DNA from: Gemmatimonadales bacterium
GTDB taxonomy: Bacteria > Gemmatimonadota > Gemmatimonadetes > Gemmatimonadales > GWC2-71-9
Length of the DNA: 61,326 bases
Direction of reading: 5' to 3'
Assembly: GCA_041613315.1 (NCBI GenBank)
Contig: JBFJHJ010000016.1
Span: 1 to 61,326 of the forward strand
Under the pieces are notes generated by a model. That model ran no database searches. It was not told the origin of the DNA and saw nothing but the letters and a program-made list of their open reading frames with translations. Shown here piece after piece: positions 17,682 through 26,048 of the stretch (within the stretch, counting starts at the first letter, position 1; the number at the start of each line of letters is the position of its first letter). Both the position numbers and the translations under genes were made by a program.

Positions 17682-19091
17682 ATGACGACGACGGAACCAG
17701 GGGTCCGAATGGAACGCGACAGCATGGGCACCGTCGAGGTCCCGGCCGACCGGTATTGGGGTGCGCAGACCGCCCGCTCCCTCAGGTATTTCGCCATCGG
17801 GCGGGACCGCATGCCGCTCGAGGTGATTCGCGCGTTTGGGTTCCTCAAGAAGGCCGCCGCGCTCACGAATCGGGAGCTTCAGACGCTGGACGAGCGGCGC
17901 GCCGCGCTCATGGTGCAGGCCGCCGACGAGGTGATCACGGGAGCGCTCGACGACCACTTTCCGCTGCACGTCTGGCAGACGGGGAGCGGCACGCAGACGA
18001 ACATGAACGTCAACGAGGTGATCGCCAATCGGGCGATCGAGTTGGCCGGCGGCGCGATGGGCAGCAAGGACCCGATCCATCCCAACGACCACGTGAACCT
18101 CTCGCAGTCGTCGAACGACACGTATCCCACCGCGATGCACGTGGCCGGCGCGCAGCTGCTCACGGAGCGCCTTCTCCCCGCGGTGGCCGCGCTCCGCGAT
18201 GCGCTCGCGGCCAAACAGGAGGAATTCCGTGACATCGTGAAGATCGGCCGGACCCACCTGCAGGATGCCGTGCCGCTCACACTCGGGCAGGAGTTCTCAG
18301 GCTACGTCGCGCAGCTGGACGACGACGTGGCCCGCATCCAGGGCGCGTTGCCCGGCCTCTATCGCCTCGCGATCGGCGGGACGGCGGTGGGCACCGGCCT
18401 CAACGCGCCGCCGGCGTTCGCCGAGCGGTGCGCGGCGCACATCGCGGAGTTGACGGGCCTTCCGTTCACCTCGGCACCCAACAAGTTCGCCGAGCTGGCG
18501 GCCCACGATGCCATGGTCATGGCCCACGGGACGCTTCGGGTGCTGGCCTGCTCGCTCATGAAGATCGCCAACGACATCCGTTGGGCGGGGTCGGGGCCGC
18601 GTTCGGGGCTGGGCGAGCTCCTCCTGCCCGCCAACGAGCCGGGCTCCTCAATCATGCCCGGCAAAGTCAATCCGACGCAGTGCGAGGCGCTGACGATGGT
18701 GGCCGTGCAGGTGTTGGGGAACGACACGGCGATCGGCTTCGCGGGCGCCCAGGGCAATTTTGAGCTGAACGTCTTCAAGCCGGTGATGGCGTTCAATCTC
18801 ATCAACTCCGCCACTCTGCTCGCCGACGCCTGTGACTCGTTCCGGAAGCACCTCGTCGTCGGACTCGCGGCGAACGAAGCACGGATCGCAGAGCTCGTGG
18901 CCAACTCGCTGATGCTGGTGACGGCCCTGACCCCCAAGATCGGCTACGACAAAGCCGCCGAGATCGCCAAGAAGGCGGACACCGAGGGCACCACGCTGAA
19001 GGCGGCCGCGCTGGCACTCGGGTACCTGAGCGAGCGAGAATTCGACGCCACCGTCAGGCCGCGGGACATGGCGTTCCCGCACGGGGCGTAG
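17682..19091 (+). CDS. fumC: Class II fumarate hydratase
   Basis: [28 protein letters not shown]. Confidence 0.97.
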
Positions 19092-19148
19092 CCCCGGGCG
19101 CCGAGGATCCTCGCCGTCCCCGCGAAAGCGGTCGCGCCCCGAAGCGTC

Positions 19149-20552
19149 ATGACGCGTCCGAGCGCGGCCATCGTGATCGGCGGCGGGGTCGCCGGGCTGG
19201 CGGCGGCGCACCGCCTCGCCGAAACGCTCGGCCCCGACCGCCTGATCTTGCTCGAGGCCCGCCGGCGCCTCGGCGGCAAGATCGTGACCGAGCGGCAGGA
19301 CGGTTTCGTGGTCGAGGGCGGTCCCGACTGCTTCCTGGCGGCGAAGCCGGCGGCCATCGAGCTCCGCCGGCTGCTCCGGCTGGACGAGCGCCTCCAGGAC
19401 GCCAATCCCCACCGCTGGCCGAGCTTCGTCCGACGCCACGGACGGCTGCATCGGCTTCCGACGGGCGTCACCGGACTCGTCCCGTCACGCCTCGGCGCCT
19501 TACTGACGACGCGACTGCTCTCCGTGCGAGGCCGGCTCCGCGCGGGATTCGAGCCCCTCCTGCCGCGAGGCACCGCCCACGGCGATGAGACCATCGCAGG
19601 CTTCGTCACGCGCCGCTTCGGGCGTGAGGCCTACGAGTGGCTCGTCGAGCCGATCCTCGGCGGCATCCATGCAGGCGACGGCAGCCAGCTCAGCCTCGCC
19701 GCCACGTTCCCGCAACTGGCCGAGATGGAGCGGGCCCACGGGAGCGTGCTGCGACCGCTGGTGCGCCGGCGCGGCGTGGGCGCCGCCGGCGCTTCGCTCA
19801 TGGCGCCGTGCGCCGGCATGGCCGAGCTGGTCGAGGCCCTGGCCACCGCCCTGCCGCCGGAGACGGTGCGCTGCGGGACGGCGGCGAGGGCGGTGCGCCG
19901 CGAGGGGAAGGGCTACGAGGTCACACTGGCGACTGGCGTGCGCCTCCACGCGCAGGCCGTGATCCTGGCCACGCCGGCCCATGTCACGGCCGCGCTGAGC
20001 GCCGGCCTCGACCCGACCCTCGCCGCCCTCCTCCGCACGATCCCGTTCGTCTCGACCGCGACCGTGTCGCTCGCGTACGCGACGGACCGAGTGCCGCACC
20101 CGCTCCGGGGCACGGGGTACGTTTCCCCGCGGGCCGAGGGCGGACCGGTGGTGGCATGCAGTTGGACCACCAGCAAGTTCGCGAATCGCGCACCCGACGG
20201 TGTGACCCTGTTACGGGTGCTGCTGGGGCGCGCCGGTCGCGACGAGGTCGTGGATCGGACGGATGACGATGTGCTCACGCTCGCGCGCGAGGAGGTCCGC
20301 GAGACGCTCGGCATCGGCGTGGCGCCCCTGCGCCACTGGATCTACCGGTGGCCTCGCGGCCTGCCGCAGTACACCCAGGGCCACGTCGGGCGGGTGGCCC
20401 GCATCGAGGACCGTCTGGCGACGCACCCGGGGTTGTGGCTCGTGGGGGCGTCGTACCACGGCGTGGGCGTCCCGGACTGCATGGCGTCGGGGTGGCGAGC
20501 CGCCGACCGGCTCACGGCGTTCGTGGGCGCCCCCCGGCCGGGGTCGGGCTGA
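19149..20552 (+). CDS. hemG: Protoporphyrinogen/coproporphyrinogen oxidase (HemY-type)
   Basis: GGGVAGL FAD motif, EGGPDCF, GIHAGD, PQYTQGH, GVGVPDC. Confidence 0.9.
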   Translation: MTRPSAAIVIGGGVAGLAAAHRLAETLGPDRLILLEARRRLGGKIVTERQDGFVVEGGPDCFLAAKPAAIELRRLLRLDERLQDANPHRWPSFVRRHGRLHRLPTGVTGLVPSRLGALLTTRLLSVRGRLRAGFEPLLPRGTAHGDETIAGFVTRRFGREAYEWLVEPILGGIHAGDGSQLSLAATFPQLAEMERAHGSVLRPLVRRRGVGAAGASLMAPCAGMAELVEALATALPPETVRCGTAARAVRREGKGYEVTLATGVRLHAQAVILATPAHVTAALSAGLDPTLAALLRTIPFVSTATVSLAYATDRVPHPLRGTGYVSPRAEGGPVVACSWTTSKFANRAPDGVTLLRVLLGRAGRDEVVDRTDDDVLTLAREEVRETLGIGVAPLRHWIYRWPRGLPQYTQGHVGRVARIEDRLATHPGLWLVGASYHGVGVPDCMASGWRAADRLTAFVGAPRPGSG

Positions 20553-20556
20553 GGGA

Positions 20557-21675
20557 TCAGGCGATGGGCGCCGGCTCGGGCTCGTACGCGCAGAACGGAT
20601 CTGAGCCCAGGTAGTCGCCCGTCATGGCGTACGCCCGGGCCCGGGAGCCGCCGCACGCCCAGCGGAATGCGCAGCGTCCGCACTTGCCGTGCAGGAGATC
20701 GGCGTTGCGGAGCTCCCGAAGCGCCGGGGCGTTCCGGTAGATGTCGGAGAGCCGTCGGTCCCGCACGTTGCCGAGCAGCGGGAATGGCAGGAACCCAGCC
20801 GGATGTACGTCGCCGCGGTGCGACACGAAGATCACGCCGTTGCCGTCCCGGATGCCGAACCCCATGCGCTTCGCCGCGCGGGCGATCTCGGTCGGCGGCA
20901 TCCCCTCAGCGAGGCGACGTTGGATCCAGTAGCGCCGGTAGTGCGGCGCCTCGACCGTCCCGACGTGAAACGGCGCGTCCCGCCCGATCTCCTCCACCCA
21001 CGCAAACAGTGTCTCCACCTCCTGCGCGCTGGGAATCCCGAGCTCCGTGCCGCGCCCCACCGGGACCAGAAGGAACAGGCTCCAGCGCCGGACCGGGGGA
21101 CACGCGCCCTCGCGCAGCAGACGGAAGAGTGCCGGCAGATGGGGGAGCGTTTCCGCCGTCACGGTGGTGTTCACCTGCACCGGGATGTGGAACTCCCGTG
21201 CCCACTCGAGCGCCTGGCGCGAATGGCCGAACGTTCCCGGGACGCGGCGAAACGCGTCGTGTACCTCAGCGGAGGGCCCGTCGAGGCTGATCCCCATAGC
21301 CGCGATGCCCAGCGCCCGGAACCGACGGACGGCATCCCGGGTCAGGGTCGGTGTCGTGCTCGGCGTGATGGACACCGGCAGTTGGATCGAGCGCGCGTAC
21401 GCGACGAGATCAAACACGTCGTCGCGTTTCATCGGGTCGCCGCCGGTGAGGATGAGCATGCTGCCCATGCCCTTGATGTCGCGCATCAAGGCCGCGGCTT
21501 CTGCCGTCGTCAGCTCCGCCGGATCGCGATGCGGGATCGCGTCGGCCCGGCAGTGCCGGCACGCCAAGTCGCACGCGATGGTGGTTTCCCAGTACACGTT
21601 GCGGGGCGCCCGGCCATAGACGAATCCAACGTGGGGCGAACCCACCGCCTCCGCGTTCAGCGACATGCTCGTCAC
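20557..21675 (-). CDS. Radical SAM/SPASM protein, AhbD/NirJ-like
   Basis: WETTIACDLACRHCRA, LTGGDP; SPASM GKCGRCAFRWACGGSRARAY...DPFC. Confidence 0.85.
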   Translation of the reverse strand: MTSMSLNAEAVGSPHVGFVYGRAPRNVYWETTIACDLACRHCRADAIPHRDPAELTTAEAAALMRDIKGMGSMLILTGGDPMKRDDVFDLVAYARSIQLPVSITPSTTPTLTRDAVRRFRALGIAAMGISLDGPSAEVHDAFRRVPGTFGHSRQALEWAREFHIPVQVNTTVTAETLPHLPALFRLLREGACPPVRRWSLFLLVPVGRGTELGIPSAQEVETLFAWVEEIGRDAPFHVGTVEAPHYRRYWIQRRLAEGMPPTEIARAAKRMGFGIRDGNGVIFVSHRGDVHPAGFLPFPLLGNVRDRRLSDIYRNAPALRELRNADLLHGKCGRCAFRWACGGSRARAYAMTGDYLGSDPFCAYEPEPAPIA

Positions 21676-21842
21676 CTCCCTGTCCCGCGCCGGAGAGCAG
21701 CCCCGAGGCGGTCAGTGCGAGACTACGCGGCCTCGCATGAGATGCGAAAAAAGGGAGTCTGAACGGACCTTCACCGGGCGCGGTGCGCGGCTCTGCTAGC
21801 CGCGGCGGCGGACGCGGCGTGCCATCGAGGTTCCTCGCTCGC

Positions 21843-22403
21843 CTAGCGGGTGACCTCCACGCGCAGCGCGTCGTTGAAGCGGTTGAAATAGCTGAACAGG
21901 CCTGCTACCAGCGCGATCTCGACGATCGCGCCCTCGTCCCAATGCCGGGCCAGCTCGGCATACACCTCGTCGGTCACGGCGTGTCCGCTGTCGGCCATGC
22001 TCTCCGCGAACCGCAGCGCGGCGAGCCAGTTCGGGCCCATACCGTCGAACGACGCCTCGACCTCGCGGCCTTCCTCCGGCACCTCGATCCGCACCGCGGC
22101 GACCCACCCGTCTCCGGCACCCAGCCGCCTTGCCAAGGCGGTGTGGGACGCGAGTCAGTAACGGCACTGGTTGATCGCCGAGACCCGGACCGCGATCAGC
22201 TCCTTGAGCACGGGCGGCACCTCTCCCTCGGTCATGACGGTCCGAAAATGCGCCAGCATCGTGGTGAGATGCGCGGGCCGCGCCGCGACGGTACGGAACA
22301 TGTTGGGGATGTTGCCGCGCTCTTTGCGGTACGTCTCGAAGATCGTGCGGACTTCGGGCGTCACCTCGCCGGGATCGCGCGGCCGGATTCGTGGGTTGCT
22401 CAT
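21843..22403 (-). CDS. AhpD/carboxymuconolactone decarboxylase family peroxidase, predicted selenoprotein (CxxU, TGA at 22155-22157)
   Basis: ORFs 22155..22571 and 21843..22136 are in one frame: KELIAVRVSAINQCRY-TGA-LASHTALARRLG...FSYFNRFNDAL; TGA at the second Cys of CxxC. Confidence 0.85.
22120..22147 (-). promoter_or_regulatory. Putative bacterial SECIS hairpin of the AhpD-like gene
   Basis: CCCA-CA-CCGCCTT-GGC-AAGGCGG-C-TGGG; G-starting apical loop about 20 nt after UGA. Confidence 0.65.
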
Positions 22404-22416
22404 GGGCTCTCGTGGA

Positions 22417-22674
22417 TCAGTCGGTACAGTCGCCGAGCGGGTACACGAACCCGCAGTTCGGACAGGGATGCTTGCAGCCGGCGGGCGCAGGTTCGACCTC
22501 GAACCCGCAGCGGAGGCACCGGGGGACTTCCGTGCTGTTGGACGTGAGCAGTACGCCGTGAGCCGAGACAAACGTCACGGCGCCGGGCGCCGACGATCCC
22601 GTCCGGTGCTCGGGGTGCGACTGTGCACCGCCCGGACCAACAGCCGGTTTGCCGCTCACCGCATCATCCCGCAA
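22417..22674 (-). CDS. Small Cys-rich zinc-ribbon protein (start uncertain; GTG at 22578 possible)
   Basis: CLRCGFEVEPAPAGCKHPCPNCGFVYPLGDCTD*; fills the gap between the MBL and AhpD genes. Confidence 0.6.
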   Translation of the reverse strand: MRDDAVSGKPAVGPGGAQSHPEHRTGSSAPGAVTFVSAHGVLLTSNSTEVPRCLRCGFEVEPAPAGCKHPCPNCGFVYPLGDCTD

Positions 22675-23314
22675 AGCGATACGCCCCCGTCAGAAACGGG
22701 TTTGTCGCGCGCTCCCGACCGATCGTGGTCTCGGGGCCGTGCCCCGGGTACACCACCGTGTCGTCGGGGAGGCTCAGGAGACGATCGCGGATGCTCGCGA
22801 GCAGCGTCGCCGTGTCGCCTCCGGGCAGATCCGTGCGGCCGATGGAACCCGCGAACAACGCGTCACCGACGAACGCCACCCCGTGCCCCACCAGGGCCAC
22901 CCCGCCGGGGCTGTGTCCCGGTACGTGCCGCACCGCGAAGCTCAGCGCGCCGAGGCGCAGCGTGTCGCCCTCCGCCAACGCCCGGTCGGGTGGGGGCGGG
23001 GGCTCCGCCCGGAGCCCCAACCAGGTTCCCTGCTCCCCGATGGCGTCGTAGAGCGAGCGGTCGTCGGGGTGCAAGTACACGGGCACGCCGGTTGCTTCCG
23101 TCACGCGGCGCACGCCGAGGATGTGGTCCAGATGGGCATGGGTGAGCCAGATCGCGCGGAGTGTCAAGCCGTCGGTCGCAAGCCGGCGGAGAAAGAGATC
23201 CGCTTCCTCACCCGGATCGATCAACGCGGCGTCCCGCGAGGCCGGGTCGGCGACGACGTAACAGTTCTCCTGAAAGGCGCCGTTGGTCAGGCAGATGACC
23301 TCAGGTCGAGGCAA
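22664..23314 (-). CDS. MBL-fold metallo-hydrolase (glyoxalase II-like, YcbL/GloC family)
   Basis: THAHLDH, PGHSPG, GDALFAGSIGRTD, YPGHG. Confidence 0.92.
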   Translation of the reverse strand: MPRPEVICLTNGAFQENCYVVADPASRDAALIDPGEEADLFLRRLATDGLTLRAIWLTHAHLDHILGVRRVTEATGVPVYLHPDDRSLYDAIGEQGTWLGLRAEPPPPPDRALAEGDTLRLGALSFAVRHVPGHSPGGVALVGHGVAFVGDALFAGSIGRTDLPGGDTATLLASIRDRLLSLPDDTVVYPGHGPETTIGRERATNPFLTGAYRFAG

Positions 23315-24305
23315 CGGCCTTGGACTCCTTCCGCTCGTCCCCCTGCGAAGTGTCCCGCCGCTCCGTCAGGTATTTCTCCGCCGCGATGGCCGCCGTGGTG
23401 GCGTCCCCCACCGCGGTGGTGATTTGCCGCGTGAGCTGCGCGCGGAGATCGCCGGCGGCGAAGAGCCCGGGGATCGAGGTCATCATATGCTGGTCGGTGA
23501 TGATGTACCCGTTCGCATCGTGGTTCACGTGCCCCTTCACGAGCCCGGTGTTCGGCAGGAAGCCGATGAAGATGAACACGCCGCCCACCGGCAGTTTCGA
23601 CGTCTCGCCGGTCGCCGTGTCCGTGAGCCGGAGGTGGGTGACGCCGGTTGCGGTGCCCTCGATCTCCTCCACGACCTTGTTCCACACGACCGCGATCTTC
23701 GGATTGCTCAAGGCGCGCTTCTGGATGATGGGGGAGGCCCGCAGCTGGTCGCGCCGGTGCACGATGTACACCTTCTCCGCGTACCGCGTCAGGTAATCGG
23801 CCTCCTCCACCGCCGCGTCACCACCACCCACCACGGCCAGCACTTCCCCCTTGAAGAACGCGCCGTCGCACACCGCGCAATACGACACACCCTTCCCCGC
23901 GTATTCCCCCTCCCCCGGCACGCCCAGCTTCCGTGGGGTGCCGCCGGCCGTGAGGATCACGACGGGCGCCCGGTACGTCGCCCCGAGCTGCGTACGCACG
24001 TCAAACGTGCCGTCCGCGCGGCGCACGATCTCGTCGGCGGTGTCCATCACGATCTCGGCGCCGAACTTCTTCGCGTGGCTCGTCATCTTCTCGGCGAGAT
24101 CCCGCCCGAGGATGCTCTCGAAACCGATGTAGTCCTCGATCACCTCGGTATTCAGGAGCTCCCCGCCGGGGACCCCCCGCTCGATCAACAGCGTGTCGAG
24201 CATCCCGCGCCCCGCATACATCGCGGCGCAGAGGCCGGCGGGGCCTCCGCCGACAACGATCACGTCGTGATTCCGCGTCGTCTTTCCGTCCGTCTTCCGT
24301 GTCAC
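23301..24305 (-). CDS. trxB: Thioredoxin-disulfide reductase
   Basis: GGGPAG, GVSYCAVCDG, GGGDAAVEEA, FAAGD...RQITTAVGD. Confidence 0.96.
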   Translation of the reverse strand: MTRKTDGKTTRNHDVIVVGGGPAGLCAAMYAGRGMLDTLLIERGVPGGELLNTEVIEDYIGFESILGRDLAEKMTSHAKKFGAEIVMDTADEIVRRADGTFDVRTQLGATYRAPVVILTAGGTPRKLGVPGEGEYAGKGVSYCAVCDGAFFKGEVLAVVGGGDAAVEEADYLTRYAEKVYIVHRRDQLRASPIIQKRALSNPKIAVVWNKVVEEIEGTATGVTHLRLTDTATGETSKLPVGGVFIFIGFLPNTGLVKGHVNHDANGYIITDQHMMTSIPGLFAAGDLRAQLTRQITTAVGDATTAAIAAEKYLTERRDTSQGDERKESKAVAST

Positions 24306-24691
24306 GTCGACCTCAGGTGCAGTGTTGGCGCCGGTCCGCCCGCCGCGAGTGCTTGCTCGAGTGACCGGCGGAACGCCACCGTTTCGAATTCCACATCCGG
24401 ACGCTGCGGACCCGACAGCTTTCCCAGCGCCGCCCCTCCAACCACGGCGACCCCGTGGCGGTTCCCTCGCTCGCGGTGAAGCAGGGCCGCCGCCGCCTGA
24501 ATCAACCCCTGGATCACCGCCGCTTCCGCTGGGTCTCTAAGGGAACGCCATATCGCTTCCAGCTCCTCGTGCGCCTCCCAGAACGCCCCGCCGTTGAACA
24601 GCGCCACCGCGCGGCGCGCATGGGCCGCCCGCTCGGGGGCCGGCAGCGGCCGGTAGCGACGCTCGGGACGCTTCTCGGGTTTCCGTAACAT
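24302..24691 (-). CDS. DUF309 family protein
   Basis: LFNGGAFWEAHEELEAIW...QGLIQAAAALLH...GN; alternative GTG start at 24739. Confidence 0.85.
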   Translation of the reverse strand: MLRKPEKRPERRYRPLPAPERAAHARRAVALFNGGAFWEAHEELEAIWRSLRDPAEAAVIQGLIQAAAALLHRERGNRHGVAVVGGAALGKLSGPQRPDVEFETVAFRRSLEQALAAGGPAPTLHLRST

Positions 24692-24750
24692 AGCGAGTCC
24701 GTGAACCGTTGTCCGTGCCTCATTGTCCGTCTCGAACACGGACCACGCCT

Positions 24751-25194
24751 CTACCCCCCGAGCGCCGCCAGCACCTCCTGCGCGCCGGGCGCGCCGCGCG
24801 TCGCGAACACCACCGTTCCATCCTGCTCGACCAACACGACGCTCCGAGCGATCCCCTTGCCATCGTCCTTCAGCGCGCCATAGGCGCGGGCGGTGACGCG
24901 GGCCGGATCACTGAGCAAGGGGAACGGCAGCTTGAGCTTCGCCGCGTAGCGAGCGTGGCTCTCAGCACCGGCAGGGTTCACCCCGAACGGCTGCACGTTC
25001 GACCCTCGGTATCGCTCGATCTCATCGCGCACGGCGGAGAGTTGGCGGTTTCACCCGGGGGTGTTGTTCCCCGGATAGAAGACAAGGAGGGCGCGCGCGT
25101 CTCCCAGCACCGCGCCCAGTCCGTAACGGCGTCCGTCGGAGGCCTCCAGGTCGAACTCCAGCGCCGGAGCGCCGACAGCGATCAGTTCGGTCAC
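24751..25194 (-). CDS. Peroxiredoxin (BCP/AhpC-TSA), predicted selenoprotein (TxxU, TGA at 25051-25053)
   Basis: GTG start overlaps PHP stop; VGAPALEFDL...VFYPGNNTPG-TGA-NRQL...LPFPLLSD...IARSVVLV in one frame; TGA at the peroxidatic Cys. Confidence 0.87.
25021..25041 (-). promoter_or_regulatory. Putative bacterial SECIS hairpin of the peroxiredoxin gene
   Basis: CTC-TC-CGC-[CGT]-GCG-c-GA-t-GAG; bulged stem, GU-containing loop about 17 nt after UGA. Confidence 0.45.
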
Positions 25195-26048
25195 GGCTCC
25201 ACCTCCGACGGGGTGCCGCGCTCCTGATGCAAGTGCTCCAGCGCGGCGAGCCACGCGGGTGGGACGGGAAGACTGCCCAGCGAGGCCCGCTCCGGTGGCC
25301 CCACCGCGCCGTCCCCGTGCCAATCGGACCCGCCCGTGAGGAGCAGGCCGAGCTGGCCGGCGGCCGCCTCGATTCGTCGCTGCCGCTCTGCGTCGTGCGA
25401 CGGATGAACGACCTCCACGGCATCCACGCCCGCGGCGGCGAGACTCGCGAGCACGGTGCGGTTCGCCCGGCCGCCCAGATGCGCCGCGGAGGATACCCCG
25501 GCCAGGCGGCGGACCAGGGCCGTTACCTCCGCGACGGCCGGCAACCGCTTCGGGACGAACGCCGGGCGCCCGCGACCGAGGTAGCGCTCGAACGCGGCCG
25601 ACACGTCGGTCACGGCGTCCCGGGCGACCAGCGCCCGCGCTACGTGGGGCCGACCGACCGCGCCGCCGTCCGCCTCGCTGAGCACCTCGTCGAGCGTGAG
25701 CCCGATCCCCGCCGCGCGGAGCCGGCGGACCATCTCGGCCGCGCGCCGACGCCGGTGGCGGCGTTGGGCCGCCAGAAACGTGTTGAGCTCGGGGGCGTCC
25801 ACGGGCAGACAGTAGGCCAGCAAGTGCATCTCCCCCCAACCCACCGCCACGCTGAACTCACAGCCCGCCACGACGCGAACGCCAGCGTCCCGTCCCACAC
25901 GTCGCGCATCCGCGACACCCTCTATCGTGTCGTGGTCCGTGAGGGCGAAGACGTCGAGGCCGGCCGCCGCCGCGCGGCGCGCGACGTCGCCGGGAGCGTA
26001 CTCGCCATCGGAGGCGGTCGAATGGACGTGGAGGTCGACGCCCGCCAC
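25191..26048 (-). CDS. PHP domain phosphoesterase (TrpH/YciV-like)
   Basis: DLHVHSTASDG, ALTDHDT, GRPHVA, TGGSDWHG. Confidence 0.92.
   Translation of the reverse strand: MAGVDLHVHSTASDGEYAPGDVARRAAAAGLDVFALTDHDTIEGVADARRVGRDAGVRVVAGCEFSVAVGWGEMHLLAYCLPVDAPELNTFLAAQRRHRRRRAAEMVRRLRAAGIGLTLDEVLSEADGGAVGRPHVARALVARDAVTDVSAAFERYLGRGRPAFVPKRLPAVAEVTALVRRLAGVSSAAHLGGRANRTVLASLAAAGVDAVEVVHPSHDAERQRRIEAAAGQLGLLLTGGSDWHGDGAVGPPERASLGSLPVPPAWLAALEHLHQERGTPSEVEP

Follow-up and report, generated by a model that had tools for sequence, protein, structure and literature searches.

Background

Does the TGA codon that interrupts an AhpD-like reading frame in a Gemmatimonadales bacterium end a protein, or is it read as selenocysteine (Sec)? 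AhpD-like selenoproteins with a CxxU motif (COG2128) were described from the Sargasso Sea in 2005 with 27 sequences (PMC1088965), 'AhpD-like 1' was among the most abundant selenoproteins in GOS in 2008 with 299 (PMC2398784), and such proteins are listed under TIGR01926 in a 2026 review (PMC13188914) and in BSepDB (PMC13326102). The premise of the initial annotation of this locus, that Sec forms of AhpD-like proteins exist, therefore holds for a published and abundant family. In this paper we examine the reading frame, its homologues, the hairpin that follows the TGA, the Sec machinery of the host genome and the neighbouring genes.

An AhpD-like gene with one in-frame TGA

The features considered here lie in the window, that is, the whole 61,326-nucleotide stretch of DNA that was analysed:

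21843..22403, minus strand: AhpD-like/CMD-family gene, 186 aa with the TGA as Sec, ATG at 22403 and TAG at 21845-21843
22155..22157, minus strand: TGA in frame at codon 83, at the second position of the CxxC motif and predicted to encode selenocysteine, pairing Cys/TGA with homologues
22125..22141, minus strand: predicted bacterial SECIS, 7-bp stem with GGC triloop, loop 20 nt past the TGA, overlapping codons 88-93
22143..22202, minus strand: predicted proton-relay helical hairpin with Glu68, Cys80, Tyr82, Sec83 and His87, spaced as in PA0269 and M. tuberculosis AhpD
21864..21890, minus strand: YFNRFNDAL, conserved C-terminal motif, residues 172-180, with 95% or higher conservation of every column among 80 TGA genes
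24751..25194, minus strand: AhpC/TSA (BCP/PrxQ-like) peroxiredoxin, second predicted selenoprotein, TGA at codon 48 (TPG-U, 25053-25051)

Translated from 22403 to 21843, the AhpD-like gene contains a single TGA in the context NQC-R-Y-U-L-A-S-H; 103 open codons and then a TAG come after it, and the full motif is E68...C80-R-Y-U83-L-A-S-H87. The initial annotation had described C-R-Y-stop-L-A-S-H and about 100 further codons with the strand unstated; both are found on the minus strand. Its proposal that the UGA is read as selenocysteine, giving one 186-aa protein, is supported by the conserved TGA, the covarying hairpin and the sel genes, and on comparison of the sequences we consider Sec recoding at codon 83 to be close to certain.

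The opposing reading is that the TGA is a true stop, in a pseudogene, through a sequencing error, or between two small proteins of 82 and 97 aa. Public collections do contain exactly these 82-aa and 97-aa fragments, without the full-length form, and TGA is the commonest stop in the host genome, ending 744 of 1246 long open reading frames with high GC3. A true stop, however, would cut the catalytic motif between Cys80 and His87, at a column that pairs with Cys in homologues.

DNA nearly identical to the gene region occurs in marine metagenome runs, and no RNA run is listed among those that carry it. Just past the stop of the gene an Arg-rich nine-codon open reading frame (21796-21825, minus strand) is preceded by a purine-rich stretch resembling a ribosome binding site, which may be a chance occurrence. 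A scan of 21500-23400 for promoters and terminators found none.

Conservation of the TGA and pairing with cysteine

The counts that follow come from related sequences and are not independent samples. Among 61 genomes of the same order that were searched, 16 matched; with the host included, all 14 close copies have a single TGA in the same column, and three other matches are distant paralogues (32-34% identity) without a stop. A sample across the phylum gave matches in 25 of 250 genomes (G184 left out), 22 with TGA and three without. In the best 80 of 194 named GTDB loci the Sec column holds TGA in 77 and TGC in three, and this set spans Gemmatimonadota, Acidobacteriota, Chloroflexota (Ktedonobacterales), Eisenbacteria and one Pseudomonadota bin. 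Reduction of 113 loci to 100 unique ones left 94 with TGA and six with TGC or TGT. In 120 database homologues the same column is Cys in 114, Trp in two, another residue in three and a gap in one, so that the alignment called for by the initial annotation does show pairing of Cys with TGA. Recurrence of the TGA in 94 unique loci of several phyla disposes of the sequencing error that the same annotation had named as a possible refutation. A Logan contig from run X2 covers 22104-22391 with the TGA unchanged and two differences elsewhere; since X2 may be the source sample, this is weak support against sequencing error.

The Trp residues belong to P0026 and P0029 and are probably TGA codons mistranslated by gene callers (code 4). 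Three loci may be broken or misassembled copies: L048 has a second stop within the match, L071 matches residues 3-135 only and L066 residues 46-186 only.

The sequence after the TGA is conserved as well. In the codon alignment of 80 TGA genes, from which eight duplicates and three partial or broken loci had been dropped, 19 columns after the TGA (YFNRFNDAL included) are at least 95% conserved, versus 23 before it. Uncorrected pN is lower than pS after the TGA in 11 of 11 pairs (0.19-0.38 versus 0.39-0.71), while pN after the TGA exceeds pN before it (0.13-0.21). The half after the TGA is thus under purifying selection, which fits a translated C-terminal half and not a pseudogene, and the YFNRFNDAL motif, which lies 90 codons beyond the TGA, points to translation of this half in the same frame. 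The relaxed selection that would have marked a pseudogene is not what these columns and pairs show. Taken with the break at the same codon in so many loci across phyla, and with a covarying hairpin that accompanies TGA and is absent from Cys genes (below), this leaves a true stop very improbable.

A covarying hairpin, the predicted SECIS

The 7-bp perfect stem with a GGC loop that had been noticed about 20 nt after the TGA is present at 22141-22125, with Watson-Crick pairs throughout. The bSECIS model specifies a loop of 3-9 nt, a stem of 4-16 bp, a G in the first two loop positions, a distance of 16-37 nt from the UGA and a minimum free energy of -7.5 or lower (PMC13188914), and the hairpin, with its 3-nt GGC loop, 7 bp, 20 nt and -9.5 kcal/mol, fits these constraints. 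Its folding is no more stable than that of shuffled sequences in any of four windows (z from -0.29 to +0.18). In the host genome (70% GC) a loose bSECIS-like stem of at least four pairs lies 3' of 74% of 53,106 TGA triplets; a strict form, defined as at least seven pairs with a loop of up to 4 nt that starts with GG and lies 18-22 nt away, follows 77 of the 53,106 (0.15%). The hairpin alone is weak evidence for Sec, and it is the comparative evidence that counts: the TGA in the same column, covariation, and loss of the stem in Cys genes lift it above chance.

Covariation was examined in 77 distinct TGA sequences, the three TGC loci being excluded by design. Of 539 stem cells 99.6% are paired, versus 34-65% in controls slid along the alignment, and two-sided changes occur at four of the seven pairs. 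They amount to 67 cells versus 19.3 in shuffles, none of 500 shuffles being as high, although the sequences are related and this shuffle count is therefore not a probability. With G-U pairs allowed, the stem forms all seven pairs in 92 of 94 unique TGA genes versus one to three in each of six Cys genes, and the loop is GGC in 107 of 107 TGA rows.

The same constraint is seen in codon usage. Of 173 windows of six codons, the two on the hairpin show the least synonymous diversity (0.24 versus a mean of 0.49). In 76 of 80 genes Leu90 is encoded by TTG, and likewise Ala91 by GCA in 76 of 80; these codons make up about 9% of Leu and about 5% of Ala codons in the host genome; rare codons are thus fixed in the hairpin. 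Several compensatory changes in the stem replace amino acids (Ala/Val at 89, Arg/Lys/Gly at 92), the SECIS being retained at the expense of the protein sequence. No conserved lower stem was found, three of four predicted pairs failing in 29-32 of the 77 sequences, and an Rfam search over 21500-25400 returned one chance match only and none to the hairpin.

Sec machinery and genetic code of the host

All four sel genes that the initial annotation had asked for are present in the host genome (82.9% complete), each above its family cut-off: selA (521.9 bits, cut-off 267.9), selB (328.7, 242.25), selC, encoding tRNA-Sec (77.2, 47), and selD (370.7, 125), the last with a single in-frame TGA of its own. 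A lack of Sec machinery can accordingly no longer be held against the proposal.

A variant code or plain read-through, with the TGA read as Trp, Gly or Cys, would also give a full-length protein. The two Trp entries noted above could be cited for it, though they are probably gene-caller translations of TGA. TGA terminates most long open reading frames in the host genome, and several of the AhpD-like orthologues too, which argues against any general change of code, and the sole tRNA with a TCA anticodon in the genome is tRNA-Sec. We consider this reading more improbable even than a true stop. Selenocysteine is left as the preferred reading of codon 83.

Among 13 TGA-bearing relatives 12 gave a selA match, G054 (85% complete) being the exception, and selA was also found in G084 and G131. 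It is present in both G050 and G026, relatives that lack the AhpD-like orthologue, so that co-occurrence with selA is a weak test. Of three Cys-bearing genomes, G141 and G144 have neither a selA match nor selB above the cut-off, and G167 has both.

A scan of the host genome for TGA read-through by codon score gave noisy output, and one of its candidates, C3:66165, turned out to mark where a sigma-factor-like gene normally ends. The genome holds three AhpD-type Sec candidates, the present gene and two further AhpD-like C-F-Y-U genes (L137:495-1088 in contig C28; L139:483-1028 in contig C3) that score 137 and 160 bits with TIGR01926 when read through, both above its cut-off. Other Sec candidates of the genome are L138:448-1836 (contig C3), which combines a thioredoxin-like domain with U-x-x-C and a long repeat-like region of NHL-like appearance, and L140:22-828 (contig C1), which is PrdB/GrdB-like with U-x-x-C.

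Family, fold and predicted catalytic relay

The protein belongs to the AhpD/CMD superfamily by PF02627 (CMD; 56.3 bits, cut-off 23) and has the AhpD core domain of TIGR00778 (59.1, 27.8). TIGR01926, the best full-length model, gives 77.6 bits over residues 5-182, under its cut-off of 81.8, and four orthologues fall on both sides of that value (95.8 and 94.2 above, 76.3 and 70.8 below). AhpD proper is distant (TIGR00777, 22.1 bits, cut-off 191.95). The NCBIfam (seleno)protein equivalogs match at E values from 1e-16 to 6e-3 and share the AhpD-fold CxxU arrangement, but all score far below their cut-offs and the present gene is a member of none of them: NF053654 (YciW-related; 60.8 bits, cut-off 310), NF041238 (AhpD_rel_CFYUT; 50.4, 175), NF041047 (GSU3128; 16.6, 110) and NF041537 (ArsM/AhpD; 16.7, 510).

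An AlphaFold model, built with Cys as stand-in for Sec and an alignment of 85 sequences, is all-helical with a pLDDT of 94.9. Foldseek placed it with AhpD-like structures at TM 0.77-0.85, among them 2prr, 6k40, 6e8l and 2oyo (0.81-0.85) and the debrominase Bmp8 (0.80). In topology the model belongs with the 2prr/2oyo/DR1765 group (TM 0.82-0.85) and not with M. tuberculosis AhpD (0.56-0.58). In the predicted structure E68 lies in helix 64-77, and C80, Y82, U83 and H87 lie at or in helix 81-93, so that all five residues of the AhpD relay have counterparts; E68, C80, Y82 and H87 are invariant in the 80 TGA genes. The corresponding residues are Glu36/Cys48/Tyr50/Cys51/His55 in P. aeruginosa PA0269 and Glu118/Cys130/His132/Cys133/His137 in M. 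tuberculosis AhpD, and these proteins share with ours the spacing Glu-x11-Cys-x-(His/Tyr)-Cys-x3-His and the all-helical fold, the present gene differing in having Sec for the second Cys (PMC3141380).

Position 80 is Thr in 55 of the 120 homologues, and position 83 stays Cys there, which points to position 83 as the likely essential nucleophile. This agrees with M. tuberculosis AhpD, in which the second Cys is reportedly the attacking residue. The 55 T-x-x-C proteins (among P0057-P0122, some named Terracidiphilus) form a sister group and represent a single-Cys AhpD-like form.

From family and motif, a role as peroxidase or disulfide reductase is probable. The nearest solved relatives are 18-26% identical over their full length and include Bmp8; because they are distant and include a debrominase, they do not fix the substrate. 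The gene could instead encode a Sec enzyme of other chalcogen chemistry, such as Bmp8-like reductive dehalogenation or the detoxification of metalloids or thiols. Bmp8 (6ohi) matches by sequence (E 3.8e-9) and by fold on a par with peroxidase-related proteins and shares the position of CxxC, and outside Gemmatimonadota no consistent peroxidase partner adjoins the AhpD-like gene. Bmp8 is, however, 23% identical and differs in the residues past CxxC and in their spacing (C-M-Y-C-K-S-H-F-S-H), whereas the five-residue AhpD relay is exact in the present gene, and in Gemmatimonadales peroxiredoxin and thioredoxin reductase genes precede the AhpD-like gene and share its orientation. We regard such other chemistry as unlikely.

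Overall, the UGA is very likely decoded as Sec by means of the downstream hairpin, giving one 186-aa enzyme that is predicted to be a selenol-based peroxidase or disulfide reductase. By what is known of bacterial Sec biology, SelB with its Sec-tRNA(Sec) would bind the hairpin with the GGC loop when a ribosome arrives at the UGA, and Sec would be inserted. By analogy to AhpD, Sec83, aided by His87 and Glu68, would attack a hydroperoxide or the disulfide of a partner, Cys80 would resolve the intermediate to a selenenylsulfide, and a donor of lipoyl or thioredoxin type would re-reduce it. Any particular redox partner is a doubtful choice.

Gene neighbourhood and a second predicted selenoprotein

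On the same strand the genes run E1 alpha, E1 beta, lipoyl E2, a small open reading frame, PHP, peroxiredoxin (TGA), DUF309, TrxB, MBL-fold hydrolase, Zn-ribbon open reading frame and AhpD-like gene, E1 and E2 being assigned from the appearance of their sequences. Within the limits of each locus, 35 Gemmatimonadota loci retain the order E1-E2-hypothetical-PHP-Prx(Sec)-TrxB-MBL-Zn ribbon-AhpD(Sec); TrxB is seen in 28, the peroxiredoxin in 24 and E2 in 23, many loci ending short. The peroxiredoxin has its TGA in all 24 related loci that hold the gene, and also in G031, G020 and G167, and it is a possible redox partner of the AhpD-like enzyme. The sequence 3' of its TGA is strongly conserved, but it looks unlike the GGC-loop hairpin, and a single SelB may recognise SECIS elements of two different shapes.

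AhpD has a lipoyl donor and AhpC as its target (PMC8945050). A dedicated adaptor of this kind, in which the neighbouring lipoyl E2 reduces AhpD(Sec) and this reduces the Sec peroxiredoxin as in M. tuberculosis, would agree with the gene order kept in Gemmatimonadota. The cluster is complete, though, in both G031 and G020, the two genomes examined that have the Sec peroxiredoxin and gave no match for the AhpD-like gene; a peroxiredoxin or E2 was found near the gene in none of 45 loci of other phyla; and TrxB adjoins the peroxiredoxin. BCP-type peroxiredoxins usually use thioredoxin. An obligate link between the gene and the cluster is thereby not supported, and a dedicated adaptor appears quite unlikely, somewhat more so than the other chalcogen chemistry considered above. 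The absence of an ahpC-ahpD pairing outside Gemmatimonadota is a further difference from M. tuberculosis AhpD.

In other phyla the neighbours are lineage-specific, for example an anti-sigma/STAS-like pair at 18 Acidobacteriota loci and an open reading frame of unknown function at 13 Ktedonobacterales loci (named from sequence appearance), and the neighbours in the 45 loci gave no shared functional clue. Directly 5' of the AhpD-like gene, a small Zn-ribbon-like open reading frame (CxxC...CxxCxxC...C; 22417 to about 22560, minus strand) is present in 24 of the 35 Gemmatimonadota loci and also at loci without the AhpD-like gene. On its 3' side, 17682-21675 holds a TIGR04053 radical SAM gene, with hemG-like and fumC-like genes on the opposite strand; relatives have there a co-directional fumarase/aspartase paralogue (42-46% identity), and this comparison suggests that the block arose by local rearrangement or insertion.

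Sec/Cys switches and relation to known selenoproteins

A quick tree was built from 131 rows after masking of the Sec/Cys column and removal of the TxxC proteins; it is rooted at the midpoint and has one mislabelled row (P0053). It needs 15 label changes, of which at least six are forced by well-supported branches, and Cys groups lie among Sec groups. Repeated Sec-to-Cys replacement in the AhpD-like subfamily is likely on this tree, the midpoint root leaving the direction unset. G084 and G167 provide a close Sec/Cys pair within one genus.

The gene shares with the AhpD-like CxxU class (COG2128/TIGR01926) the CxxU motif, a length of about 180 aa, TIGR01926 as best NCBIfam match, a bacterial SECIS directly after the UGA and widespread Cys homologues. 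It is set apart from that class by model scores, not by comparison with published sequences: it falls under the TIGR01926 cut-off, and the two other CxxU genes of the genome fit that model much better, so that we place it in a distinct subfamily within the class. It is well supported that this AhpD subfamily is Sec-dominant, has no model of its own and straddles the TIGR01926 cut-off, and equally that it has one shared SECIS (7-bp stem, invariant GGC triloop, +20 spacing). A literature search that set aside the contents of BSepDB, subscription journals and supplements turned up no paper that treats the subfamily in Gemmatimonadota, and its genes may already be catalogued in BSepDB; the literature cited here reports no biochemical study of an AhpD-like selenoprotein.

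A more ambitious reading would join this unmodelled subfamily, and a portable SECIS read by the SelBs of at least four phyla, to a double-selenium lipoyl-AhpD-Prx chain in Gemmatimonadales. As a whole it is improbable, its uncertain part being the chain from lipoyl E2 through AhpD(Sec) to the Sec peroxiredoxin, modelled on the mycobacterial lipoyl-AhpD-AhpC chain.

Conclusions

The gene genuinely belongs to a selenoprotein class that has been known since 2005; it is an ordinary example and no new kind of system, with the modest extras of one SECIS common to four phyla, repeated Sec/Cys switches and a Sec peroxiredoxin nearby. Its recognition corrects the annotation of this gene and its relatives, which are stored as two meaningless fragments, a form that hides a widespread soil and sediment selenoenzyme from protein searches. 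For specialists, a bacterial SECIS with such unusually good covariation across phyla makes a clean natural test set, and the close Sec/Cys pairs offer a way to ask what Sec adds in an AhpD-type enzyme.
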